Source: Blastocatellia bacterium (GTDB lineage: Bacteria; Acidobacteriota; Blastocatellia; UBA7656). Taken from it: a stretch of 64,000 nt of DNA. The position numbers and the translations under genes are program-made. Shown piece after piece: positions 9,189 through 45,263 of this stretch; positions within the stretch are counted from its first letter, which is position 1, and each line of letters opens with the position of its first letter. Under the pieces are notes generated by a model. That model was given only the letters and a program-made list of their open reading frames with translations, had not been told where the DNA came from and searched no databases. The stretch is from the NCBI GenBank assembly GCA_035575515.1, contig DATLXU010000127.1, positions 97,356 through 161,355 of the forward strand, in the 5' to 3' direction.

Positions 9189-10400
9189 ATGCAGACTATG
9201 CGAGCGGTAAAGGAGCAGAAGAGCAAAGCCGGATACATCATAGCGACGCTCTCAATCGCAGCCGCGACCGCCGCGCTTAAATTGTTCGGCAGCCATATCA
9301 ATTCAACAACAGTCGCGCTCGCGCTGCTGTTGATTGTTCTGTTCGTTGCAACTCGATGGGGATCGCGCCCCGCCGTCGTCGCTTCATTGCTCAGCATGGT
9401 TTGCTTCAACTATTTCTTCCTTCCGCCGGTGGGCACGTTGACCATAGCGACGCCCGACAACTGGGTTGCGCTCGCCGCGTTCTTAATCACCGCCGTCACC
9501 GCCGGAGAGCTTTCGGCTCGCGCAAGGCGGCGCGCCGAAGAGGCCGAAGCCGGACGGCGCGAGATCGAGCGTTTATACAGTGAGCTTCAAGACGCATTCG
9601 AGCGCGCAAGCTATGCGGAAGCTCTCAAACGTAGCGAGCGGTTGAAATCGGCTTTGTTAGACGCCGTGACGCATGACATTCGCACGCCGCTCACTTCCAT
9701 CAAAGCGTCCGTTACGACACTGCTCGACGAGTTGCGCGCAATGACAGGTGAAGCGGTCGCGCTCGACGCGGAAGGCCGCAGAGAGATGCTTGAAATAATT
9801 AACGAGGAAGCGGATCGGTTGAATCGTTTTGTCGAAAACCTTCTGGAGCTTGCGCGCATAGAAGCAGGCGAGATGCATCTCAGGCGCAGGTGGGGAGCGA
9901 TTGACGAGATAGTGCTTGCGGCGCTTGAGCGAGCCGAGCCGCTCACACGCCGTCACCGGATTGAAGCGGCTGTCGAGAACGAATTGCCGCTGGCGCGCGT
10001 TGACGGGCGAGCCGTTGCTGAAGTCCTTTATACTCTCATTGACAACGCCGCGAAGTATTCTCCGGCGGGCACGCGCATACGGGTTACGGCCAGTCGAGTT
10101 GATGAGAAGCTATTGCAGCTGTCGGTTGAAGATGAAGGGCCGGGCATTCCCGTTGAGATGCGCGAGCGCGCCTTCGATAAATTCTTTCGCGCAATGCGTG
10201 ACGGCGACTCAGGCGCGGGCCGCGCTTCGGGCGTAGGGATGGGACTGGCAATTGCGCGAGGCATTATCGAGGCGCACGGTGGGCGCATCTGGATTGAAGA
10301 TGGAGAGAACGGGCGCGGGACTCGCGTCGCGTTCACGTTGCCGGTGGGCAATGAAGAAGAAATTGCTCTGGAAGAATTGAAGCAGATCAGCTCCCGATGA
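9189..10400 (+). CDS. kdpD: KdpD C-terminal half: four-TM domain plus HisKA/HATPase sensor kinase; no KdpD N-terminal or Usp domain
   Basis: N-terminal TM bundle typical of the KdpD membrane domain, then H-box THDIRTPL and N/G boxes (GTRVAFTLP); adjacent to kdpE. Confidence 0.75.
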
Positions 10401-11294: not shown

Positions 11295-12884
11295 GTGCTA
11301 GCCTGTGAATGTGACGAGGTCCTGCAAGGAACTGCGGCCAGCCGACGCGCTGGGGAGATGAAAATGGGGATAAAATTGTTGGCAGCAGCTTTCGCCATCG
11401 CGATGGTTGTTTTGTTGTGGCTGCGCGAATTCATCCTCAGCATTGGAAAAAAGAAGAAAGCTGGCAGTGTCCACGAGGTGCTCGTCGTGCGCGCAGAGGA
11501 TGAAAGAAGACCGCCAGAGCGCGCAGATGTGGAAGAGAGTCCAGACGAAGTTCAGCCCGACGCTTCATCGGTTGAGATTGAAGAGTTTCTTGCCGAGCTT
11601 CGCGCGAAGGCGCAAGACAAGCCGCGCAAGAATAACTCTCTTTTCTTGATAGCCATCCCGGCTCTAGTTGCAAGCTGGTTGCCTGCTGCGGCTTCAATCT
11701 GTCGCGCTCAAAGCTCTAGCATCAAGATAGGCCCGGTCGTTTCTGACAAGACTAATTCCGGCAAGTCGTTACTCGATAATGCGGTCGCTGAGGAAGTAGC
11801 GTCTCAAGAACCGCAGAAACAGCAGTCGAAGCCTGAATGGAACTATGGTGGCTTCGTGGATGTTGGCTACTCGCTCGATTTCAACCATCCGGCAAATCTG
11901 TTTTTCCGAAGTCGCGGTACCGCTTGGCACGTCGATAACTTGTATCTGAATATAGCGGGCGCATATGTGAAGAAAGATCCCTCCGAATCTTCACGATGGG
12001 GCGGTCAATTGACAGTCCAAGGGGGGAAAGATTCCGAGGTTTTTGGGTTCTCCGCAACGGCTCCAAACATCGGAGGTTTCAAAGTCCTTCGCCACCTCGG
12101 TCCAACAAATGTGTCTTATCTTGCGCCTGTGGGCAAGGGACTCACTGTGCAGGGTGGAATCTTCGGCAGTTTGATCGGCTACGACTCGCTCTACGCCAAG
12201 GATAATTTAGAATATACCAGACCGTGGGGAGCCGACTTCACGCCGTATTTGATGATGGGCGTCAACGCGAGTTATCCCTTCAACGAGAAGCTCACCGGCG
12301 CGTTCTTCGTGATCAATGGATACTGGCATCTGGCCAACGCGAACAGTGTCCCTAGTTCGGGTGGCCAACTTGCCTATAAGGCAAGCCCGCGCGTGACAGT
12401 GAAGGAAACGGTTCTTTGGGGGCCTCATCAGTCGAACACCTCATTCAAGTTCTGGCGCTTCCTTACGGACACCATTGTCGAATGCAAGACAGATCGAGTT
12501 ACTTTTGCATTTGAATACATCTACTCGTCGGAACGTGTTGACGCTCTTGGAACGCCCCGCGCCTTGATGATGGCTGGCCAGTTGCCGGTGCATTTTGCTT
12601 TGAACAAACGGTGGAGTGCAACCGTTCGACCTGAGGTTTTCTGGGATCGCAATGGCCGGTGGACCTTAGCCAGGCAGACCGTCAAAGCCATCACGACTAC
12701 GCTCGAATATCGCATCCCGTACCGACAAACCAATACGATCCTGCGGCTGGAGCACCGGTATGACGATTCGCGGGGGCCAGATGGAGGCTTCTTCAGAGGT
12801 GCTGAAGTACAGCCAGGCATGGTCGGCTTGACGCCAACCCAGCACCTTTTGATTTTCGGGCTGCTCTTCACGTTCGACCGCTAA
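11295..12884 (+). CDS. Predicted outer-membrane beta-barrel porin co-transcribed with kdpFABC; start codon uncertain (11364 preferred)
   Basis: C-terminal ~380 aa show alternating amphipathic beta-strand patterns ending in the aromatic terminus LLFTFDR; the N-terminus is unusual (TM-like segment, acidic linker, second hydrophobic segment). Confidence 0.5.
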   Translation: MLACECDEVLQGTAASRRAGEMKMGIKLLAAAFAIAMVVLLWLREFILSIGKKKKAGSVHEVLVVRAEDERRPPERADVEESPDEVQPDASSVEIEEFLAELRAKAQDKPRKNNSLFLIAIPALVASWLPAAASICRAQSSSIKIGPVVSDKTNSGKSLLDNAVAEEVASQEPQKQQSKPEWNYGGFVDVGYSLDFNHPANLFFRSRGTAWHVDNLYLNIAGAYVKKDPSESSRWGGQLTVQGGKDSEVFGFSATAPNIGGFKVLRHLGPTNVSYLAPVGKGLTVQGGIFGSLIGYDSLYAKDNLEYTRPWGADFTPYLMMGVNASYPFNEKLTGAFFVINGYWHLANANSVPSSGGQLAYKASPRVTVKETVLWGPHQSNTSFKFWRFLTDTIVECKTDRVTFAFEYIYSSERVDALGTPRALMMAGQLPVHFALNKRWSATVRPEVFWDRNGRWTLARQTVKAITTTLEYRIPYRQTNTILRLEHRYDDSRGPDGGFFRGAEVQPGMVGLTPTQHLLIFGLLFTFDR

Positions 12885-12895
12885 GGATCCGGGTA

Positions 12896-13096
12896 GTGGA
12901 GGTGACAGAACTTTACACAGAGCTTAAAGCGCGACACGAGGCCGGCATATCGGAGTGGTCTCTGGTAAAGCGAATGGCGGAGGTCTTCGTCAAAGACCTT
13001 CGTTACTACATAGATTTCCTTATGGCTTGCTTTCTAGTCTGGCGTGAATTGCGCCGCGAGAGGGAAAGCGCAAAGAACAAGGATATTGCGGGGTAG
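12896..13096 (+). CDS. Hypothetical small protein between porin and kdpF
   Basis: 66-aa ORF with no recognisable family; coding status uncertain. Confidence 0.2.
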   Translation: MEVTELYTELKARHEAGISEWSLVKRMAEVFVKDLRYYIDFLMACFLVWRELRRERESAKNKDIAG

Positions 13097-13190: not shown

Positions 13191-13283
13191 ATGACGAATA
13201 TCGAATACATAATCAGCGGAGTAATTGCCCTGCTGTTGCTCTTTTATCTGATGTACGCGCTACTCAAGCCAGAGAGGTTTTAG
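13191..13283 (+). CDS. kdpF: Potassium-transporting ATPase subunit F
   Basis: [30 protein letters not shown], cf. E. coli KdpF MSAGVITGVLLVFLLLGYLVYALINAEAF; missed by the 60-aa ORF cutoff. Confidence 0.8.
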
Positions 13284-14155
13284 AGCGTGTTGAGAAATTA
13301 GAGGAGAGGCAGTGGAAATGGGTAAACTGTCATTGCCATGAACCGCACAACCCTATCCATCTGACCTCTCCGATGAGCAGTGGAAACTGCTCGAACCTAT
13401 GTTACCACCTGCGGTTCCTGCGCGGTCGCAAGCGAACGGTGGATTTGCGCGAAATTGTCAACGCTATCCTTTACCTGCTGCGGACGGGTTGTGCTTGGCG
13501 TTATTTGCCTCACGAGTTCCCCGAGTGGACGACCGTTTATTATTACTTGCGGTTGCTGGCGCGACTTAGACTGGTTCGCCAAACTCAACGGCGAATTACG
13601 CAGCCCGCATCCGCAGGGCTTACGGACGCGACCGTAGACCCTAGCGCCGCCATCATCGATTCGCAATCGGTAAAGACGACCGAGCACGGGCGGCGAAAAA
13701 GGCTATGACGCGGGCAAGAAAGTCAATTGGCGCAAGCGTCATATCCTGGTCGATACCTTGGGCTTGTTGCTCTCGGTCAAAGTCTTGGCAGCCAATATCC
13801 AAGACCGCGGGGAGCGCGAAAGCCTTACTCGATGAAGTCAAAGAACGACCCCCGCGCCTCCACTTGATCTGGGCCGATGGCGGCTATGGCGGCAAGTTGA
13901 TTACTTGGGTAGCGACGAAGCGGTTTGTGGTTATTGCAAGTCGTCAAGCGCACAGATGACGTCAAAGGCTTCGTGGTTTTGCCCAGACGATGGGTCGTTG
14001 AACTTGCCCTTCGGCTGGCTGGGTCGCCCGCCGACGATTGAGCAAAGACTATGAGCGGCATTGTGAATCCTCCGAGTCGTTTGTTTATCTGGCGATGATT
14101 CACCTGATGCTCAAGCGGTTGAAGCCTATGCGAACTTAATTTCTCAACACGCTCT
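13284..14155 (+). mobile_element. Decayed IS5-family insertion sequence with perfect 19-bp terminal inverted repeats, inserted between kdpF and kdpA
   Basis: Left IR AGAGCGTGTTGAGAAATTA (13282-13300) and right-end reverse complement TAATTTCTCAACACGCTCT (14137-14155); internal reading frames encode transposase fragments. Confidence 0.8.
13363..14133 (+). pseudogene. IS5-family (DDE) transposase disrupted by at least four frameshifts
   Basis: [16 protein letters not shown] / [30 protein letters not shown] / [14 protein letters not shown] / [24 protein letters not shown] / LIWADGGYGGKLI / [18 protein letters not shown] lie in three different frames. Confidence 0.8.
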
Positions 14156-14160
14156 TAGAT

Positions 14161-15936
14161 ATGACTATCAACGGTTGGTTGCAAATCCTGTTATTCCTCG
14201 CGGCAATCTTGCTGGTCACAAAGCCGCTCGGTGTCTATATGGCGCGAGTGTTTAATCGCGAGAAAACGTTTCTCGATAGGGTGTTGCGCCCAATCGAACA
14301 ACTTATCTATCGCCTGACTCGCGTTGACGAATCGCGCGAGATGCGCTGGACCGAGTACGCCGTCGCGATGCTACTGTTCAGTGCCGTCTCGATGGTGGTG
14401 CTATACCTACTTCAGCGGCTTCAAGGTGTGCTGCCTTTCAACCCACAGAACCTGTCAGGCGTCGGAGATCATTCATCTTTCAACACAGCCGCGTCGTTCA
14501 CGACAAACACCAACTGGCAAAGCTACGTGCCAGAAACGACGATGAGCTACCTGACGCAGATGGCCGGGCTCGCTTATCACAATTTCGTCTCTGCCGCGGT
14601 CGGCATCGCACTCGCCATTGCCTTCATTCGTGGCATCGCCCGGCGCGAGAAAGACACAATCGGCAACTTCTGGGTTGACTTTGTGCGCTGCACCCTCTGG
14701 GTGCTTGTCCCGTTCTGCGTAATCGGCGCGCTCGCGCTCGTCTCGCAGGGCGTCGTACAAAACCTCAAACCTTATGACACGGCGAAGCTCGTCGAGCCGC
14801 TGACGGTAGAAAAAGAGTTGGAGGATGGCAGGAAAACTACGGAGACAGTCATCGAGCAGGTGATAGCTCAAGGGCCTGTCGCGTCGCAGGAGATAATCAA
14901 AGAGTTGGGCACAAACGGTGGAGGGTTCTTCAACGCCAATAGTGCGCACCCGTTTGAAAATCCCACGCCGCTTGCGAACTTCATAGAACTGTTTGCCATC
15001 TTCGCCATCTCTTCGGGGCTTACTTACACGCTAGGGCGAATGACCGGCTCGCAGCGACACGGTTGGGCCGTGTGGGGAGCGATGGCCGCGCTGTTTCTGG
15101 TCGGAGTCGCAGTCAGCTACTGGTCAGAAGCGCGAGGCAACCCGCTGCTTGCGGGCACTGACCAGACCGTAAGCGCGATGCAATCGGGCGGCAACATGGA
15201 AGGCAAAGAAGTCCGCTTCGGCATTGCCAACTCTGCGCTGTTTGCAACCGTCACGACCGACGCATCGTGCGGTGCGGTCAACTCGATGCTTGACTCATAC
15301 ACGCCGCTCGGCGGGCTTGTGCCGCTTACAAATATGATGCTCGGCGAAGTCATATTCGGCGGCGTCGGCGCTGGTATGTACGGCATTCTGATTTTCGTAA
15401 TACTTTCAGTCTTCATCGCGGGATTGATGGTCGGTCGCACGCCTGAATACTTGGGCAAGAAGATTGAAAGCTATGACGTGAAGATGGCGATGCTCGCCGT
15501 GCTGATCTTCCCTCTGACAATTCTCATACTGGCGGGCATATCGGCAATCTCGCCGTCGTTTGGCACATCGAGCATCTTAAATCCCGGCCCGCATGGGCTT
15601 TCAGAGATTCTTTACGCTTACACTTCCGGCACTGGCAACAACGGCTCTGCGTTCGCAGGGATTTCTGCCAACACGCCCTGGTACAACACGACAATTGGGC
15701 TGGCGATGCTTATCGGGCGATTCCTGATAATCATCCCGATGCTTGCTGTCGCGGGCAATCTCGGTCGCAAGAAGATAGTGCCGCCATCGCTCGGAACGTT
15801 TCCCGTAACGACGCCGCTGTTCACGGCGCTGCTCGTCTCGGTGATCGTGATTGTTGGTGCATTGACTTTCTTTCCTGCGCTGAGCCTTGGCCCCATTGTT
15901 GAACACTTGCTGATGGGAGCGGGACAAAGTTTCTGA
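14161..15936 (+). CDS. kdpA: Potassium-transporting ATPase subunit A
   Basis: [32 protein letters not shown]-terminus and selectivity-filter-like regions; 591 aa. Confidence 0.9.
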
Positions 15937-15944
15937 GGTCGAAC

Positions 15945-18004
<2,060 letters not shown>

Positions 18005-18008
<4 letters not shown>

Positions 18009-18562
18009 AAAACTTTGTGACGGCTATATTGATGGCGATAGTGACGACGATTTTGCTTGGTCTGGTTTATCCGCTCGTCGTAACGGGACTCGCGCAGGTC
18101 ATATTCCCTGACAAAGCCAACGGGCAGTTGATCGTGCGCTATGGCACGGTCATAGGCTCGCGCATCATTGGCCAGCCTTTCGCATCGCCGCGCTACTTTC
18201 ATTCGCGGCCTTCTGCGGCGGGCGCGGGCTATGACGCGGGCGCGTCTTCAGGCTCGAATCTCGGCCCGACCAATAACGCTTTGATCGAGCGCGTGAAGAC
18301 GGATGTCGAAAGCCGACAAAAAGAGAATCCTAACGCGCCCGTGCCGATTGATCTGGTGACGGCTTCGGCTTCTGGGCTCGACCCGCACATCTCACCGGCA
18401 GCGGCAGAATTTCAGGTGCCGCGAGTGGCGCAAGCGCGCGGATTGAGTGTTGATGAGGTGCGCCGTCTTGTGCAAGAGCATACCGAAGGCAGGACGTTCG
18501 GGATATTAGGCGAGCCGCGCGTCAACGTGCTCGAATTGAACCTGGCGCTGGATAAAAAGTGA
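18005..18562 (+). CDS. kdpC: Potassium-transporting ATPase subunit C
   Basis: Single N-terminal TM helix plus [14 protein letters not shown], the KdpC signature; overlaps the kdpB stop. Confidence 0.88.
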
Positions 18563-18632
18563 AAAGTGAAAAGTGGATAACAGCGAGAAGCTTGCCTTAA
18601 CACTATTCACTATTCGCTTTTCACTATTCGAT
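18563..18632. repeat. Intergenic heptamer-repeat palindrome (aaaagtg)3 ... (cactatt)3
   Basis: aaaagtgaaaagtgaaaagtg ... cactattcactattcgcttttcactattc between kdpC and the downstream kinase. Confidence 0.6.
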
Positions 18633-20525
18633 ATGAATAGCCTGAGACAAAAGCTGGCACTGAGCTACGGGTTGCTGATAATCATTATCTTCGCCGTCAG
18701 CGCGTGGAGCATCTATCATCTTGTGACGCTTGGCCGGGCGATTGATGTAATACTGGTTAATAACTACAAGAGCATCGTCGCAGCCGAGAATATGAAAGAA
18801 GCTCTTGAGCGACAGGATTCCGCAGCGATGTTTTTCATCGCCAGCCACGCCGACAAGGCTCGCCAGCAATTTGAAGCGAACAGCCAAAAGTTTTCTCAGG
18901 AATTTGAAATCGCCGCAAATAACATCACCGAAAAAGGCGAGCCGGAAATCATCAACGACATAAACGCGAAGTATCAGGCTTACCGAAGCGAGCTTGAAAG
19001 TTTTCTCAACCCGGCAGCGACTCTAACAGCAGCCAAGCAGTCCAACATCTACTTTGAAAGGCTTGAGCCGCAGTTCATCGCAATCAAAGACAAGCTGGAC
19101 GACTTGCTGCGCCTCAACCAGCAGGCTATGGTCGCGGCCAACGACCGCGCCATTTCCGTATCGCAACGCGCGGAGATTTCGACCGCAGTAACGGCGGCGC
19201 TCGCGCTTGCTCTGGCTTTGATATTCGCGTGGCAATTCACGCGCTACGTCGTCACGCCAATTTCAACTCTCAGCCAGAAGGCACGGCTGATAGGTGAAGG
19301 CGACCTGGATCAGCGCATAAGCGTTTCATCAAAAGATGAGATAGGCGTGCTTGCTGCGGAGTTCAACCGTATGCTTTTACGATTGCGCGAGGCGCGCAAA
19401 TTCGATTATGGGCGATTGCTTATCGAGCAGAAAAAATCGGATGCGGTGATTGATTCTCTCTACGAGCCGGTGATAGTGACCGATGCGCGCGGCCACGTTA
19501 TTAAGATCAATCGCGCGGCCAGCCAGTTGTTCAGCAACGGCAATAAAGGCGACTTGGATTTTTCACTGTCGCAATTCACGGGGGGCGAGCGCATACTGCG
19601 CGTGGTGCGCGATGTTGTTGCGATGCAGCGGCCCGTCGCCGCCGAAGGCGAGGCTGCGCTTGTGCCAATCGAGGTAGGCGGAGCCGAGCGCAGCTTTCGA
19701 CTGCGCGCAACTCCCATGCGCGACTCTGACGGGCGATTGCTTGGCGCAGTCACGGTACTTGAAGATGTCACAGCCATAACAGAGGTTGACAGGCTGAAAA
19801 CAGAATTCATCTCCGTCGCATCGGGCAAGCTGCGCGAGCCGCTTCATTCGCTTCAACTCGCGCTTCATGCAGTCATCGGAGGCTACGCAGGCGAGTTGAA
19901 CGATCAACAAGCGGATATGCTCGTGACAGCGCAGGAGAATGCAGAGAAGCTCGAAGAGATGATGAATGACCTGCTTCAGTTGGCAGAGATTGAATCGGGC
20001 GCGCGACGGCTTTCAATTCAACGGCTCCGCCCCGTTGATCTGGCGCGCGCTTGCGTTGAGAGGTTTCGCCCTCTAGCTGAAAGCAAACAGATTAAACTTG
20101 AAAACAATGTCTGGCCTGACCTGCCGTGGGTTGTTGGCGACCGCGAAGCTGTCGCGCGCGTCTTTGATAACTTGCTGTCGAATGCTATACGCCACACAGG
20201 GCGCGGCGGGCGCGTCACGATTGAAGCAAGAGAGCGCGCTGGGCGAGTCTTTTTCAGCGTGCGCGATACGGGCGAGGGCATACCTGAAGAGCACCTGCCC
20301 GTTTTATTCAGTCGCTTCGCTCGCGTTGGCAATAAAGCGGGCAGCACTGGGTTAGGGCTGGCTCTGGTGAAACGATTGGTGGAAGCGCAGGGAGGGCAAG
20401 TCAGCGTCGAAAGTCGCGTGGGCGAAGGCTCGACCTTTACTTTCACGATGCTCGAAGGCGGCCCTGCAAGCGTCAGGAGCACTGACCAGACGCGGGGACG
20501 CGGAGACGCGGAGACGCGACGATGA
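18633..20525 (+). CDS. Sensor histidine kinase (TM-periplasmic-TM, HAMP, PAS, HisKA, HATPase); the ORF track allows an earlier start at 18573
   Basis: Two TM segments, HAMP (EFNRMLLRLREA), PAS-like region, H-box, N/G boxes (HTGRGG, GLGLALVK); 3' end encodes RGRGDAETRR from GC-rich tandem repeats. Confidence 0.8.
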   Translation: MNSLRQKLALSYGLLIIIIFAVSAWSIYHLVTLGRAIDVILVNNYKSIVAAENMKEALERQDSAAMFFIASHADKARQQFEANSQKFSQEFEIAANNITEKGEPEIINDINAKYQAYRSELESFLNPAATLTAAKQSNIYFERLEPQFIAIKDKLDDLLRLNQQAMVAANDRAISVSQRAEISTAVTAALALALALIFAWQFTRYVVTPISTLSQKARLIGEGDLDQRISVSSKDEIGVLAAEFNRMLLRLREARKFDYGRLLIEQKKSDAVIDSLYEPVIVTDARGHVIKINRAASQLFSNGNKGDLDFSLSQFTGGERILRVVRDVVAMQRPVAAEGEAALVPIEVGGAERSFRLRATPMRDSDGRLLGAVTVLEDVTAITEVDRLKTEFISVASGKLREPLHSLQLALHAVIGGYAGELNDQQADMLVTAQENAEKLEEMMNDLLQLAEIESGARRLSIQRLRPVDLARACVERFRPLAESKQIKLENNVWPDLPWVVGDREAVARVFDNLLSNAIRHTGRGGRVTIEARERAGRVFFSVRDTGEGIPEEHLPVLFSRFARVGNKAGSTGLGLALVKRLVEAQGGQVSVESRVGEGSTFTFTMLEGGPASVRSTDQTRGRGDAETRR

Positions 20526-20586: not shown

Positions 20587-21732
20587 ATGAGCCAGGTTGT
20601 TGACACACGACCGAAAGCAGAGTCGCTGCTTGCACGGCAGCAACAGGCGCGGCGCGCGTGGCTGCGATTGTATATCGGCGCGGCTCCTGGCGTCGGCAAG
20701 ACTTATCAAATGCTCGAAGAGGCGCATCTTCTCAGGCGACAGGGCGTAGATATAGTCATCGGCCTCATCGAGCCGCATGGCCGCGCTGAAACCATAGCTT
20801 TGATAGACGAACTTGAGCGCGTTCCGCTGCGCCGAATAGAGTATCGCGGCGTCACGCTTGAAGAGATGGACGTTGAGCGTGTCATTGCGCGCAAGCCCGA
20901 AGTGGTCATCGTTGACGAGCTGGCGCACACGAACGTTCCCGGCTCGAAACATCACAAGCGATATGAAGATGTGCTGGAAATACTTGACGCAGGAATCTCT
21001 TGTATCACCGCATTCAATGTACAGCACATAGAATCGCTCAACGATACCATCGCGCGCATAACGGGCGTTCGCGTGCGCGAGACGATACCGGATTATTTCC
21101 TGCGCCGCGCCGATGAAGTGGTTAACATTGATGTATCGGTTGACACGCTGCGCACGCGGCTTCGTCAGGGAAAGATTTACAGCATAGAAAAGATCGAGCA
21201 GGCGCTTGCCAACTTCTTTCGCAAGGGCAATCTATCTGCGCTGCGCGAGCTTGCGCTGCGCCAGGTTGCCGAAGATCAGGCTGCAAAGGCGCACGACTAC
21301 CGCGAGCGCGAGGGACTAGAGCAGGCGGCAATTCCTGAAAAAGTCATGGTCTGCATGTCATCGCGTAGCAGCGCAAAAAAACTCCTGCGCACAGGCTCGC
21401 GCATTGCCGGACGGTTTGCTTCGGACTGGTACGCGGTCTATGTCGAAACGCCTCGCGAGGAGCCTAGCCGTATCAAGCCAGAAGACCATGCGGCGCTGAT
21501 GGAAAACATCCGATTTGCCGAAGAACTGGGCGCGAAAGTGGTACAGCTCAAAGCGCGCTGGGTTGCCGACGCGCTCATCGAATTTGCGCGGCGCGAAGGC
21601 GTCACGCACGTTGTCTTCGGCCAATCGGCCCGCTCCCGCTGGGACATACTGCTACGCGGTTCGGTAATAAATCGCTTTCTGAACGAGGTGCGCGACGCGA
21701 CTGTGCAAGTCGTCCCGCTTTCTGAAGGATGA
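20587..21732 (+). CDS. kdpD: KdpD N-terminal sensor domain plus Usp domain as a stand-alone protein; no TM or kinase
   Basis: GAAPGVGKTYQML Walker-A-like motif of the KdpD N-domain, then a Usp-like C-terminal half (KVMVCMSSRSS...HVVFGQS). Confidence 0.8.
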   Translation: MSQVVDTRPKAESLLARQQQARRAWLRLYIGAAPGVGKTYQMLEEAHLLRRQGVDIVIGLIEPHGRAETIALIDELERVPLRRIEYRGVTLEEMDVERVIARKPEVVIVDELAHTNVPGSKHHKRYEDVLEILDAGISCITAFNVQHIESLNDTIARITGVRVRETIPDYFLRRADEVVNIDVSVDTLRTRLRQGKIYSIEKIEQALANFFRKGNLSALRELALRQVAEDQAAKAHDYREREGLEQAAIPEKVMVCMSSRSSAKKLLRTGSRIAGRFASDWYAVYVETPREEPSRIKPEDHAALMENIRFAEELGAKVVQLKARWVADALIEFARREGVTHVVFGQSARSRWDILLRGSVINRFLNEVRDATVQVVPLSEG

Positions 21733-22219: not shown

Positions 22220-22525
22220 ATGCTATCAATAGGTCGTGAAATCAACATAAGTCAAAAAGAAGTCGTTTGCCGCAAATGCCATTGGGAAGGCGCGGGCAGC
22301 CAGCTTTCAATCGGGTTGATTGAGATTGCCCACACGCAGATGTACCTTGCGGCCTATCGCTGCCCACAGTGCCACAGCTTCGATGTAAATCGCAAAGGCA
22401 AGCTGCTTGAGTTTCGTTTGCCCCGCGCGCTCGATTATCAGCAAACGGACGCAGCCACACGCGATGAAAACAGCAACGAAAACGAATCGCGAAAAGATAG
22501 AGGGACGACTCCTTTATGGAGATAG
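22220..22525 (+). CDS. Small zinc-ribbon protein (CxxC...CxxC)
   Basis: CRKCHWEG and CPQCHSFD Cys pairs; lies in the leader region of the KimA-like gene. Confidence 0.35.
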   Translation: MLSIGREINISQKEVVCRKCHWEGAGSQLSIGLIEIAHTQMYLAAYRCPQCHSFDVNRKGKLLEFRLPRALDYQQTDAATRDENSNENESRKDRGTTPLWR

Positions 22526-24939
22526 ACAGTATGGAGATAGACAGCCTTACGCCTAAGACTCCAACAACTCAGAATCGCGTCAGGGTAGTCGTCGCCACGA
22601 CCGTTATGCTTTCGTTCATTTCATTCTGGCGAGCGGCGGCTATTGTCTTAAACGATCTCGGCTCGTCTGCTTTTTATGTCGGCGGAATTGCAGAAAAAGC
22701 TGTGGGGCGAGCGGCTCCTTGGTTCATTCTCGGCGTGATGCTTTTCTCTTACGCCGTGCGCGCCGTTTACGTCGAATCGTGCGCGATGTTCACGCGCGGC
22801 GGCGTTTATCGCGTAGTGAAAGAAGCAATGGGCGGCACGCTCGCAAAGCTTAGTGTCTCGGCTTTGATGTTCGATTACATCCTGACCGGGCCGATTTCCG
22901 GCGTATCAGCAGGCCAGTATATAGTCGGCCTTGCCGCGCAAACCTTAACTTATCTCGGCCATCCGTTGAGTCCCCCTCAATCAACCGTCAATGCAATCGC
23001 GGCTGGTATAGCAGTTTTGATAACCATTTATTTCTGGTGGCGAAATACTAAAGGGCTGCACGAATCATCAGGCGACGCGCTGCGAATAATGTACGTCACG
23101 ACGGCTATGATCGTGATGCTGATAGTGTGGTCAGGCCTGACCATTCTCACCCAGCCCGATAAACGGAGATTACCACCCGCGCCCGTTGCCGAAAATCTTA
23201 GTTTCAATCGCGACGCCGTCGGCTGGCTGCCCAGTATCGCGCCCGGCGCATTGCGAGAGTTGCCGCAGGAAGCCGCACCCGCCGATTCGCCCGCGCCTGA
23301 CCAAACTGCAACTGAGCCGCGCTACGGCATCATCGAGAACGCGGGCGCGCTCTTGGGACTGATCGGAATCCTTATGGCTTTCGGCCATGCGTTTCTCGCA
23401 ATGAGCGGCGAAGAATCGCTCGCGCAGGTCTATCGCGAGCTTGAATACCCGAAGCATAAAAACCTGATGCGAGCCGGGCTTGTGATATTTGTCTACTCAC
23501 TGCTGTTCACATCGCTCGTATCGTTTTTCGCTTACGCAATCATCCCTGACGATGTGAGACCTCAGTATCTTGATAATCTCATCAGCGGCATCTCGATTTA
23601 TCTGATAGGCCCTATGCCGCTGAAGCTGTTGTTTCAAGCCTTCATCGTAATAGTAGGTTTTCTGATGCTTGCGGGCGCGATCAATACTTCGATCATCGGA
23701 TCGAACGGCGTGTTGAATCGTGTGTCGGAAGACGGCGTGCTGACGGACTGGTTTCGTGCGCCGCATCGCAAATACGGTACGACACACCGGATCATTAACC
23801 TGATAGTCGTCCTGCAACTTGTCGCCATCGTCGCCTCGCGCGGAAATACTTACACGCTCGGCGAGGCCTACGCGTTCGGCGTGATATGGTCGTTTGCATT
23901 CAAGGCGCTCGCCGTGCTTGTGCTTCGATTCAAAGACCGCTCGGGCCGCGAGTGGAAAGTCCCTTTCAACATTCGCCTCGACGGCAACGAGCTTCCAATC
24001 GGACTTGGCGTAATCACGACGCTGTTGTTTTCGGTCGCGGGAATAAACCTGATAACGAAAGAGGTGGCGACCGTAGCAGGCGTCGCTTTCACAATAGTCT
24101 TTTTCGTCATCTTCACAATCTCGGAGCGAATCAACCAGCGAAAGCTCGACCGATCAATTGCGGCGCTCGACCAGTTCAAGCTGCACTACGAGCAGAACGT
24201 GAGCATTGATACTGTGAACGTGCGACCCGGCAATGTGCTTGTCGCCGCGCGAGACTATAACACGCTCTCGCATCTCGACCTCGCGCTTGAGCGCATTGAC
24301 ACAGACGAGCAGGACATCGTTGTGATGACGGTAATGGTGATACGTGGGCGCGGGCGCGGGCGAGCGCGATTTGTACGATGCGAACCTGTTCACAGATTAT
24401 GAGCAGCGATTGTTTACGCGAGTCGTTGCGCTGGCCGAGCGACACGGCAAGCCCGTCAACCTGCTCGTCGTGCCGTCAACGAACGTCTTCGACGCAGTGG
24501 CGCAGACCGCGTTGCGATTGGATTCAGCCGAGATAATCACAGGGCTGTCGGCAAAGATGAGCGCCGCCACGAGCTTTCGCGCCGATTGGGCCAGGCGTGG
24601 GAGCGGTTGCCTGAAAAGCCTCGCCGCCAGGTTAAATACACCGTTGTAGAGCCGAGCGGTCACGAGCGCGTCTTTTATCTCGGAGCGCACGCGCCCCAGC
24701 TTACGGAAGAAGACATAAATCTGATTCACAAGATATGGCTTGAGGTGAGCAAGCTGCCGGCCCGCCGCAAGGTGCATCATCGCGACGTTGTGCGTGTGGC
24801 ATTAGAGCGGCTCGCGCGCGATCTGCGCGGGCAGACGGACGTGATGCTGGACTTTTACAGGCTGGAGCACAACGAGGGAAAAAAGATTGGCAGCCGGGTT
24901 GATCGGTCTGACAATAGCGATGCTGGCGGCAGAAAATAG
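22516..24939 (+). pseudogene. kimA: KimA-like APC-superfamily K+ transporter gene with two frameshifts in the cytoplasmic C-terminal domain
   Basis: The N-terminal 12-TM domain aligns by eye to B. subtilis KimA (GGVYRVVKEAMG...FDYILT vs GGAYIVSKENLG...VDYILT; NTKGLHES vs NLRGLSES). The intact frame ends at 24402, but the homologous domain continues in two other frames to 24939. Confidence 0.6.
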
Positions 24940-25017: not shown

Positions 25018-25512
25018 CTATTCGATGTCGGTGACTTTGCCTTTCACCAGAGTGACTTTCAGTTTTAAAGCGGAGTAGATGAGTATCTCTTTCGATCCGG
25101 CGCTGATGGTTCTGTCAGGCTCGCCGAATTTCGCAATCACGTCTTTGCGCTCGATGCCGGGTTTCAATTCTACATTCTTGCCAGACTGCGCGCCGCTTTG
25201 AGCCTGCGATGCGCCCGCGTGAACATCGTCTGAAGGCGCGGTCGCGCCACCGTGAATGGCATCGTTTGGCGGCATCGCGCCTTCGGGCAACGGGCCTGCC
25301 GGAATAGTCTCGCCGGGCTTGATTGGCGGATGACCTTCGGGAAGCTGCGGCGCGCTCGTTTGAGTGCCGCTGTTGACGGATTCCGATTTCGGCCTGCCCT
25401 CTTCTACAACCTGCGAACCGGCTTTGCTCGTCGTCCAATTTCCTACGAGAAAGCCGAGCACGAGACCGGCGACTATGCCTATGATTCCATAACTTATGTA
25501 TTGCCTCTTCAT
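25018..25512 (-). CDS. Hypothetical membrane-anchored protein with a Pro/Gly-rich linker
   Basis: N-terminal TM (IIGIVAGLVLGFLVG), low-complexity linker, small C-terminal domain. Confidence 0.5.
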   Translation of the reverse strand: MKRQYISYGIIGIVAGLVLGFLVGNWTTSKAGSQVVEEGRPKSESVNSGTQTSAPQLPEGHPPIKPGETIPAGPLPEGAMPPNDAIHGGATAPSDDVHAGASQAQSGAQSGKNVELKPGIERKDVIAKFGEPDRTISAGSKEILIYSALKLKVTLVKGKVTDIE

Positions 25513-45082: not shown

Positions 45083-45157
45083 GGCGGCTATAGTTCAGTT
45101 GGTTAGAACGCCTGACTGTGGATCAGGAGGTCGTCGGTTCAAGTCCGACTAGCCGCC
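45083..45157 (+). tRNA. tRNA-His (anticodon GTG) with encoded G-1
   Basis: Hand-folded cloverleaf: G-1 opposite discriminator C, acceptor GCGGCTA/TAGCCGC, anticodon loop CTGTGGA, T-arm GTCGG-TTCAAGT-CCGAC. Confidence 0.8.
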
Positions 45158-45189: not shown

Positions 45190-45263
45190 GGCGGGGTAGC
45201 TCAGTTGGTGAGAGCGTGGGATTCATAACCCCAAGGTCGGGAGTTCAAGTCTCCCCCCCGCTA
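45190..45263 (+). tRNA. tRNA with CAT anticodon (Met, or Ile2 if lysidine-modified)
   Basis: Acceptor GGCGGGG/CCCCGCT (G1-U72), D-arm GCTC-AGTTGGTGA-GAGC, anticodon loop TTCATAA, T-arm GGGAG-TTCAAGT-CTCCC. Confidence 0.75.

Follow-up and report, generated by a model that had tools for sequence, protein, structure and literature searches.

The window (the whole 64-kb stretch of DNA analysed here, from a soil bacterium of the Blastocatellia, Acidobacteriota) carries a kdp cluster that, as an earlier note on this sequence had claimed, is interrupted by an insertion sequence. An IS5-family element of ~0.87 kb (13283-14155), with matches to DUF4096 and the IS5 transposase, lies exactly between kdpF and kdpA. 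It is bounded by perfect terminal inverted repeats of 18-19 nt (13282-13300 and 14137-14155) with a TTA target duplication, and its junctions are formed by the kdpF stop codon (13281-13283) and the kdpA start (14161). The sister contigs show the same spacing, and contigs from runs SRR24677611 and SRR24677612 have an identical kdpA. Downstream of the element, on the plus strand, kdpA (14161-15936; Pfam KdpA, full length, E 1.6e-243), kdpB (15945-18008; E1-E2_ATPase and Hydrolase) and kdpC (18005-18562; KdpC, E 1.2e-78) are all intact.

The last gene of the kdp cluster (20587-21732, plus strand) encodes a stand-alone 381-aa protein that combines the KdpD N-terminal sensor with a Usp domain (Pfam KdpD, E 9e-93; Usp, E 6e-8). 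It is located ~490 bases upstream of a conserved ORF of 101 aa (22220-22525, plus strand) with a weak Zn_ribbon match, which overlaps the start of a transporter gene by 10 bases and is probably its operon partner. This zinc-ribbon-like ORF was called in loci L001-L004 and, by tblastn, adjoins the transporter gene in 15 of 82 related loci, mostly upstream. The KdpD/Usp gene and the transporter gene are also syntenic in L004 and further close relatives, and kdp genes are found no more than 6 kb from the transporter in ~16 of the 82 loci, in several arrangements. Promoter and terminator scans returned background-level signals only.

The transporter gene itself is split among three plus-strand ORFs, confirmed in the program-made ORF list: 22516-24402 (628 aa), 24344-24649 and 24586-24939. 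The first of these, identical to database protein P0090, encodes an APC-superfamily permease with a complete 12-TM domain; its residues 35-532 align with positions 1-426 of the 427 in the Pfam profile AA_permease_2 (E 3.8e-46). After the 12-TM domain, this ORF retains the first strand-helix-strand of a Usp-like domain, followed by ~17 out-of-frame residues, RGRGRARFVRCEPVHRL, and a premature TGA (24400-24402), which is where the earlier note had the intact frame end. At the start of the gene, a 15-bp tandem duplication (22515-22529, plus strand), by which MEIDS is encoded twice, is present in the window only (window compared with L001-L003; P0090 compared with P0096).

Taken alone, neither the middle ORF (24344-24649) nor the last one (24586-24939) has a Pfam match. 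In a frameshift-aware tblastn search of the window with the intact homologue P0001, a check proposed in the earlier note, the homology switches from frame 1 to frame 2 and back to frame 1, with E values in the range of 1e-26 to 1e-51. Frame 1 carries the matches to P0001 residues 540-609 (at 24145-24342, E 2e-26) and 683-790 (at 24577-24897, 72% identical, E 2e-51), and frame 2 the one in between, to residues 610-682 (at 24356-24565, 87% identical, E 3e-39). Given that the next-best tblastn matches elsewhere in the window have E >0.06, this pattern is far beyond chance. The middle segment (24356-24565, plus strand), readable in frame 2 only as ERDLYDANLF...GLSAKMSA, covers the part of the Usp-like domain from helix 2 through strand 3 and helix 3 to strand 4. 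The last segment (24568-24939, plus strand) comprises the end of that domain and a helical tail, and closes with the ancestral stop codon TAG (24937-24939); in gene calls, a portion of it appears as an independent ORF of 117 aa with a TTG start (24586-24939), on six contigs. The earlier note had placed the two segments in frames +1 and then +2. The middle segment is indeed in another frame, but the last one has returned to the frame in which the first ORF is read: positions 22516 and 24586 each leave a remainder of 1 on division by 3, and the two shifts (+1, then +2) sum to +3. Deletion of one and then two bases yields a single 806-aa ORF uninterrupted by stop codons. Identity to the intact relatives of ~800 aa is 82%.

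The first frameshift site (24346-24362, plus strand) consists of a GGGCGC-repeat run, GGGCGCGGGCGCGGGCG, the same run to which the shift had previously been assigned, and contains a 1-base insertion relative to intact orthologues. In the DNA alignment, the intact orthologues L004 and L005 both show a 1-base gap, and the extra base is most simply a G at ~24350 (CGTGGGC[G]CGGG); the tblastn frame change falls between 24342 and 24356. In the model of P0001, this site is predicted to map to a disordered loop of the Usp-like domain (residues 608-617, pLDDT <50). The second site (24560-24573, plus strand; AGCGCC[GC]CACGAG) lies in GCCGCC and contains a 2-base insertion, GC at ~24566-24567, opposite a 2-base gap in L004 and L005; a 1-base deletion following an earlier 3-base gain is a less parsimonious alternative. 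A simple change in homopolymer length accounts for neither indel. The second insertion does not rescue the protein because the premature TGA lies between the two sites. A compensatory, selected pair of indels was considered and rejected on account of this stop codon; moreover, by chance alone a second frameshifting indel would restore the frame in about one case out of two.

No orthologue with either shift was found among the relatives. In 81 of 82 related loci, a single HSP spans both sites (P0001 residues 595-700), the sole exception, L056, being cut by a contig end. The 120 homologues among the matches listed are ~770-830 aa long and align with as much as 99% of the repaired protein. Both indels are, however, base-for-base identical in five MAG assemblies (GCA_037024415.1,.435.1,.455.1,.495.1 and.555.1). 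These sister assemblies represent a distinct haplotype, 99.7-99.8% identical to the window, with 10-11 substitutions and a 15-bp indel over 11.9 kb, and with a 4-base cluster of changes; all five belong to the same submission series and were possibly sequenced on the same platform. The indels are present in six assemblies representing two haplotypes and at least two pipelines, and the broken allele, like the insertion sequence between kdpF and kdpA, occurs in every assembly found. In a scan of GTDB species representatives, the window's own species was not among the matches, the best of which was 83% identical.

KimA (YdaO) of Bacillus subtilis is a K+/H+ symporter of a KUP-related APC subfamily (PDB 6S3K, 8B70, 8B71). 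The earlier note had called the 12-TM region KimA-like, and KimA is its best solved match both by profile and by fold. The relationship was reached only with a profile of diverse homologues, for which KimA (6s3k) is the top PDB match (E 1.8e-16) and the next APC match, the best amino-acid transporter, follows at E 0.012; single-sequence phmmer searches of the PDB with the repaired protein and with its N-terminal 122 aa produced no match, KimA included. Foldseek ranks 1-3 are all KimA (E 8.9e-15), and the AF2 model of P0001 shows 12 TM helices in the APC/LeuT fold. The motifs previously cited as shared with KimA (GGxYxVxKE...DYILT, NxRGLxES and KAF..G.SALTGVEAIS) are all present in the HMMER alignment.

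In KimA, the K+ site and gate involve T121, S125, T230 and Y377, the tunnel D117, and proton coupling E233 (PMC6994465). In the HMMER alignment, D117, Y118, T121 and S125 correspond to the D, Y, T and S of MFDYILTGPIS, E233 to the E of AMSGEES, and Y377 to the Y of GEAYAFG, whereas T230 is replaced by S; E233 is kept in 25 of 29 family members and Y377 in 28 of 29. The alignment begins at KimA residue 91, so that D36 and Y43 of TM1 are outside the aligned part. These two TM1 residues are essential for K+ uptake by KimA. The window encodes NDLGSSAFY, with D and Y seven residues apart, which matches the D36-Y43 spacing and is treated as a lead only. Residue conservation and gene neighbourhood together suggest that K+ was the ancestral substrate.

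The intact proteins share with KimA the 12-TM LeuT fold and a cytoplasmic alpha/beta domain C-terminal to TM12, but the identity is only ~17%, and they are longer (~800 aa, compared to 607 aa for KimA), with a long periplasmic or loop insert (approximately residues 210-275) and an extra helical tail. The Rfam search of the whole window detected no ydaO or other riboswitch, so that, in contrast to KimA (YdaO), the gene is not preceded by a ydaO c-di-AMP riboswitch. The next-best whole-chain fold matches are the cation-chloride cotransporters of the SLC12 family (NCC, NKCC and KCC), which likewise combine the APC fold with a large C-terminal alpha/beta regulatory domain; however, these proteins are eukaryotic, only ~11-13% identical, with much larger C-terminal domains and no detectable relationship at the sequence level. 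The only NCBIfam match, TIGR00909, was far below the cutoff and gave no family-level assignment, and a search of the literature for Acidobacteria homologues of KimA brought up nothing relevant.

The C-terminal cytoplasmic domain of KimA is a five-stranded, PPAT-like alpha/beta domain that binds c-di-AMP. The earlier note had a KimA-like cytoplasmic domain continuing past the stop codon; the continuation is real, but by fold the domain is Usp-like. When it was searched alone, the best fold matches were Usp domains (E 4e-5 to 1e-4), including the c-di-AMP-bound Usp domain of KdpD (PDB 7JI4) and cAMP-bound MSMEG_3811 (5AHW), with KimA outside the top 50. The domain shares the Rossmann-like beta-alpha-beta topology of Usp domains and differs from these in having two extra strands and a ~60-residue helical extension. 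At the sequence level, the domain profile gave a non-significant Usp match in Pfam (E 0.013, in one of 12 members) and nothing significant in the PDB (best E 0.2). The c-di-AMP motif described for the Usp domain of KdpD is SXS-X20-FTAXY (PMC4686210). Database entries name the intact family no more specifically than "amino acid transporter" or "APC family permease"; its members are more likely to be K+/H+ symporters of the KimA type that carry a Usp-like regulatory domain.

The middle segment is as similar to 40 homologues as these are to one another (identity 0.81 in both cases); since the disrupted segments match the conservation seen in intact homologues, the break is recent. At the polymorphic four-base cluster (24424-24429, plus strand), the window encodes the ancestral RVVALA in the ancestral frame, whereas the five sister assemblies encode RVDGLA. 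This change of VVA to VDG falls in a helix, LFTRVVALAE, conserved in the homologue consensus, and hints that the shifted segment may no longer be under selection. Apart from this cluster, the segments show no excess divergence, which fits a very recent event. The N-terminal parts of the two haplotypes differ by one non-synonymous SNP (a conservative V/I change) and the in-frame duplication, too few polymorphisms for selection on this part to be judged.

The earlier note had left the choice between a recent pseudogene and an indel-type assembly error. With the indels recurring in six assemblies, the evidence favours the former, and we give the reading of a real gene that was inactivated or truncated recently a probability of roughly 0.7. 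The event appears to be an ordinary, recent pseudogenization or truncation, and the family concerned is uncharacterised, related to KimA and linked to kdp. The ancestor would have been a membrane protein of ~805 aa, in which a 12-TM LeuT-fold KimA-related domain was followed by a Usp-like domain and then a helical tail. The 1-base insertion at ~24350 shifts the frame just past strand 2 of the Usp-like domain, and out-of-frame translation halts 17 codons on, at the TGA; the 2-base insertion at ~24566-24567 brings the remainder back to the original frame with no rescue of the protein. The truncated product, whose regulatory and probably dimerising domain is only half built, is likely to be non-functional or crippled. 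The K+ uptake route provided by this gene is then presumably inactive, although the 628-aa product could retain some activity. Short-repeat indels, a premature stop, out-of-frame homology, intact orthologues and fixation within one species are all shared with ordinary bacterial frameshift pseudogenes, from which the present case differs in nothing essential, the only oddity being the second indel that restores the frame and rescues nothing.

We consider it unlikely, but worth weighing, that the 628-aa protein works as a transporter of K+ (or another cation) from which the Usp-like regulatory domain has been lost, a deregulating and possibly adaptive change. Most APC transporters function without any C-terminal domain, and here the full 12-TM domain and all the conserved site residues are upstream of the first shift. 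The single conservative V/I change in the N-terminal part and the fixation of the allele in every assembly found are compatible with retained function, but polymorphisms are too few to show purifying selection. The half Usp domain with an Arg-rich missense tail makes misfolding likely, and in KimA it is chiefly the swapped cytoplasmic domains, with their linker loops, that hold the dimer together (PMC6994465). In addition, the Usp-like domain is kept by all 81 relatives, which suggests that it is needed. About equally doubtful is the broader proposal that these genes form an uncharacterised Acidobacteriota clade of KimA-related, kdp-linked K+/H+ symporters regulated by a nucleotide-binding Usp-like domain and, jointly, that the lesions in both high-affinity routes of this locus reflect an adaptive shutdown or deregulation of K+ import and not random decay.

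Far less probable is that both indels are sequencing or assembly artefacts and that the real gene is intact. The GC-rich repeats in which both sites are located and the total gain of exactly three bases could suggest such errors. However, an assembly error is unlikely because the indels are identical in the five other assemblies and the rest of the window is unfragmented: long ORFs cover 84% of it, and no other split genes are evident in the 64 kb. The absence of a simple homopolymer length change at either site also argues against artefacts, as does the disruptive change that the sister haplotype carries in the shifted segment, which is expected if that segment is untranslated. Programmed recoding, with +1 and then +2 (or -1) ribosomal frameshifting yielding a full-length protein of ~88 kDa, would account for the restored frame and for three segments that are all open in their ancestral frames, but is barely conceivable given that the shifts are absent from the relatives (81 of 82 loci read through without a break), neither position has a slippery heptamer or known +1 site, the sister haplotype gathers damaging changes in the middle segment, and two independent recoding events 215 bases apart are, to our knowledge, unprecedented.

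If the gene is indeed recently inactivated or truncated, the frameshifts together with the insertion between kdpF and kdpA suggest ongoing erosion of the locus for high-affinity K+ uptake in this lineage. That both K+ uptake systems at one locus bear lesions in one Blastocatellia species is of modest biological interest; the double lesion could be of use for asking whether the habitat makes K+ acquisition dispensable. The practical value is chiefly one of annotation: the "APC family permease" of 628 aa and the hypothetical protein of 117 aa in public records are two pieces of the same broken gene.

The transporter gene has been disrupted by real and recent frameshifts, which make it a pseudogene or, at best, a truncated allele; the disrupted protein was related to KimA, the Bacillus subtilis K+/H+ symporter, and probably imported K+. 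The gene is spread over three plus-strand ORFs: an APC-superfamily permease at 22516-24402 (628 aa), which matches nearly the entire Pfam profile AA_permease_2 (E = 3.8e-46), and two pieces at 24344-24649 (101 aa) and 24586-24939 (117 aa), neither of which produced a Pfam match when searched alone. The first and third ORFs share one frame (starts both 1 mod 3), and the second is offset by +1. Frameshift-aware tblastn with an intact homologue, P0001, detected three consecutive segments of it, at 24145-24342 (frame 1, E = 2e-26), 24356-24565 (frame 2, 87% identity, E = 3e-39) and 24577-24897 (frame 1, 72% identity, E = 2e-51). Together with DNA alignment to the intact orthologues of two relatives (loci L004 and L005), this search bears out the claim of the earlier note that a KimA-like gene is split, with homology switching frames. 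Of the frames assigned there, both shifts stood, but the last segment lies in the original frame, the shifts themselves being +1 and +2.

Relative to L004 and L005, insertion 1 is one extra base at about 24350, CGTGGGC[G]CGGGCGCGGGCGAG, and insertion 2 is two extra bases at about 24566-24567, ATGAGCGCC[GC]CACGAG. Removal of the three inserted bases yields a single stop-free ORF of 806 aa. The return of the frame brings no rescue, because the out-of-frame stretch is terminated by a premature TGA at 24400-24402, formed from the Tyr-Glu codon pair TAT-GAG of the window lineage where L004 has TAC-GAG. Given that about half of second frameshifting indels are expected to restore the frame, its restoration here is an unremarkable coincidence, and frameshift disruption of such a gene is an ordinary phenomenon.

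A search with the conceptual protein joined from the three ORF pieces returned thousands of matches. The best 120 of these, from metagenome-assembled genomes (MAGs) of Blastocatellia and other Acidobacteriota, are mostly about 770-830 aa long and 70-83% identical, with query coverage up to 99%; their database names say no more than "amino acid transporter" or "APC family permease". The 628-aa product of the window is itself among the best 120 (P0090, "MAG TPA: Blastocatellia bacterium"), as is P0096, a 623-aa product 99% identical to it.

A PDB search with a single sequence found nothing, whereas a profile from an alignment of 29 diverse family members matched B. subtilis KimA with E = 1.8e-16, the next APC transporter following at 0.012. 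Of the functional sites defined for KimA (PMC6994465), D117, Y118, T121 and S125 are conserved in the window (MFDYILTGPIS), as are the proton-coupling E233 (AMSGEES) and Y377 (GEAYAFG), and T230 is replaced with Ser in the same AMSGEES motif. Across the 29 family sequences, E233 is retained in 25 and Y377 in 28. The profile alignment does not reach D36 and Y43 of TM1. The window motif NDLGSSAFY, with D and Y at the D36-Y43 spacing of KimA, may correspond to them but is no more than a lead to follow. An AlphaFold2 model of P0001 (pLDDT 80) had KimA as its top three Foldseek matches in the PDB (E = 9e-15), followed by cation-chloride cotransporters and then amino-acid APC transporters. The gene neighbourhood also supports a role in K+ uptake: the window and its closest relatives share the order kdpC, histidine kinase, KdpD-N/Usp protein, 101-aa ORF, transporter, and about 16 of 82 loci have kdp genes, variously arranged, within 6 kb of the transporter gene. 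Thus, the profile match, site residues, fold ranking and kdp neighbourhood back the KimA-like assignment of the earlier note, and a KimA-like K+ transporter is the best supported functional reading from sequence and model. A widespread, so far unnamed family thereby gains a better functional label, although it is a distant, uncharacterised branch with about 17% identity to KimA. Neither a ydaO riboswitch nor any other known RNA element was found at the gene; throughout the window, Rfam matched only two adjacent plus-strand tRNA genes (45084-45157 and 45190-45263). Some distant family representatives carry long C-terminal extensions, one matching MgtE_N (E = 1.7e-5), and the database protein P0175 (1174 aa) has an MgtE-like membrane part; such members look like two fused cation transporters.

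In the P0001 model, an alpha/beta domain comes after TM12 and precedes three C-terminal helices; its elements run strand 1, helix 1, strand 2, loop, helix 2, strand 3, helix 3, strand 4, helix 4 and two further strands. No significant sequence-level match of the C-terminal domain was found in the PDB or Pfam. Modelled alone, this region best matched Usp domains, with the c-di-AMP-bound KdpD Usp domain on top (7JI4, E = 4e-5), and further cAMP- and dAMP-bound Usp proteins and cation-chloride cotransporter C-terminal domains. Insertion 2 falls at the start of helix 4. Because insertion 1 lies in the disordered loop following strand 2, the 628-aa product comprises the entire membrane domain, no more than a third of the cytoplasmic one and an Arg-rich missense tail. 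In KimA, the main dimer interface and the c-di-AMP site are built from the swapped cytoplasmic domains with their linkers (PMC6994465, PMC10284832). By analogy, truncation is expected to remove at least regulation and probably to destabilise the protein; it is unlikely that the product keeps residual, deregulated activity.

A sequencing or assembly artefact, the other option of the earlier note, is highly improbable. Both insertions recur base for base, gapless against the window, in five sister assemblies (GCA_037024415.1,.435.1,.455.1,.495.1 and.555.1) at 99.7-99.8% identity over 11.9 kb. These are not copies of the window, because about ten substitutions, the absence of a 15-bp tandem duplication and a cluster of four changed bases at 24424-24429 set them apart from it, and one of the five has a private SNP. 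P0096 is encoded on four NCBI MAG contigs; the 117-aa product is found unchanged on six. Neither insertion is a homopolymer length change, and no other clearly split gene was seen in the window (greedy ORF cover 84%). A conserved programmed frameshift is ruled out because the frameshifts are common to no relative: a single HSP spans both sites in 81 of 82 related loci, and the remaining one is interrupted by a contig end. The perfect 15-bp duplication (22515-22529, ATGGAGATAGACAGT/C), which doubles the N-terminal MEIDS, is confined to the window.

Comparison of the repaired protein with 40 intact homologues, set against homologue-homologue identity, revealed no measurable decay in the TM domain (0.84 vs 0.83), middle segment (0.81 vs 0.81) or last segment (0.69 vs 0.72), which indicates that both lesions are recent. 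The shared indels favour a recent pseudogene over assembly error. The sole sign of relaxed constraint is the cluster at 24424-24429, 4 substitutions in 6 bases that look like a single multi-nucleotide mutation: in the ancestral frame, the window retains the family consensus LFTRVVALAE, and all five sister assemblies read RVDGLA, placing Asp and Gly within a conserved amphipathic helix. Of practical use are the corrected gene anatomy (+1, +2, frame return) and the case against assembly error.

The insertion sequence reported earlier in the Kdp operon is present as a 0.87-kb IS5-family element (13283-14155), exactly between the kdpF stop (kdpF, 13191-13283) and the kdpA start (14161), with perfect inverted repeats (13282-13300 and 14137-14155), a TTA target duplication, and DUF4096 and IS5 transposase matches. 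The kdpF TAG stop is partly made of IS sequence. Because kdpF, kdpA, kdpB and kdpC are each intact ORFs, the element would act through polarity or regulation and not by breaking a gene. Sister contigs, including the SRR24677611 and SRR24677612 run-level assemblies, have the same 1065-base spacing and DUF4096 ORF; therefore, both K+ locus lesions are common to all assemblies found for the species.

KdpD is split: a stand-alone KdpD-N/Usp protein (381 aa, 20587-21732) closes the kdp cluster, and a DUF4118-HisKA-HATPase kinase (403 aa, 9189-10400) lies upstream, adjoining a KdpE-like regulator. An extra 4HB_MCP-HAMP-PAS histidine kinase (650 aa, 18573-20525) lies between kdpC and KdpD-N. Close relatives such as L004 keep this arrangement. 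The zinc-ribbon-like 101-aa ORF at 22220-22525, with two CxxC pairs, shares 10 bases with the start of the transporter gene and is its neighbour in 15 of 82 related loci, mostly upstream. Directly 3' of the intact transporter gene, L004 (7402-7776) and L005 (12541-12915) each have a 124-aa gene, the two being matched by size and position; in the window's species it is not called, and an unrelated 164-aa opposite-strand gene (25018-25512) occupies the place. A BBP2/OmpL-like beta-barrel porin gene (11295-12884) and a conserved 66-aa ORF (12896-13096), between the KdpE-like regulator and kdpF, may represent an outer-membrane K+ entry route of the kdp locus.
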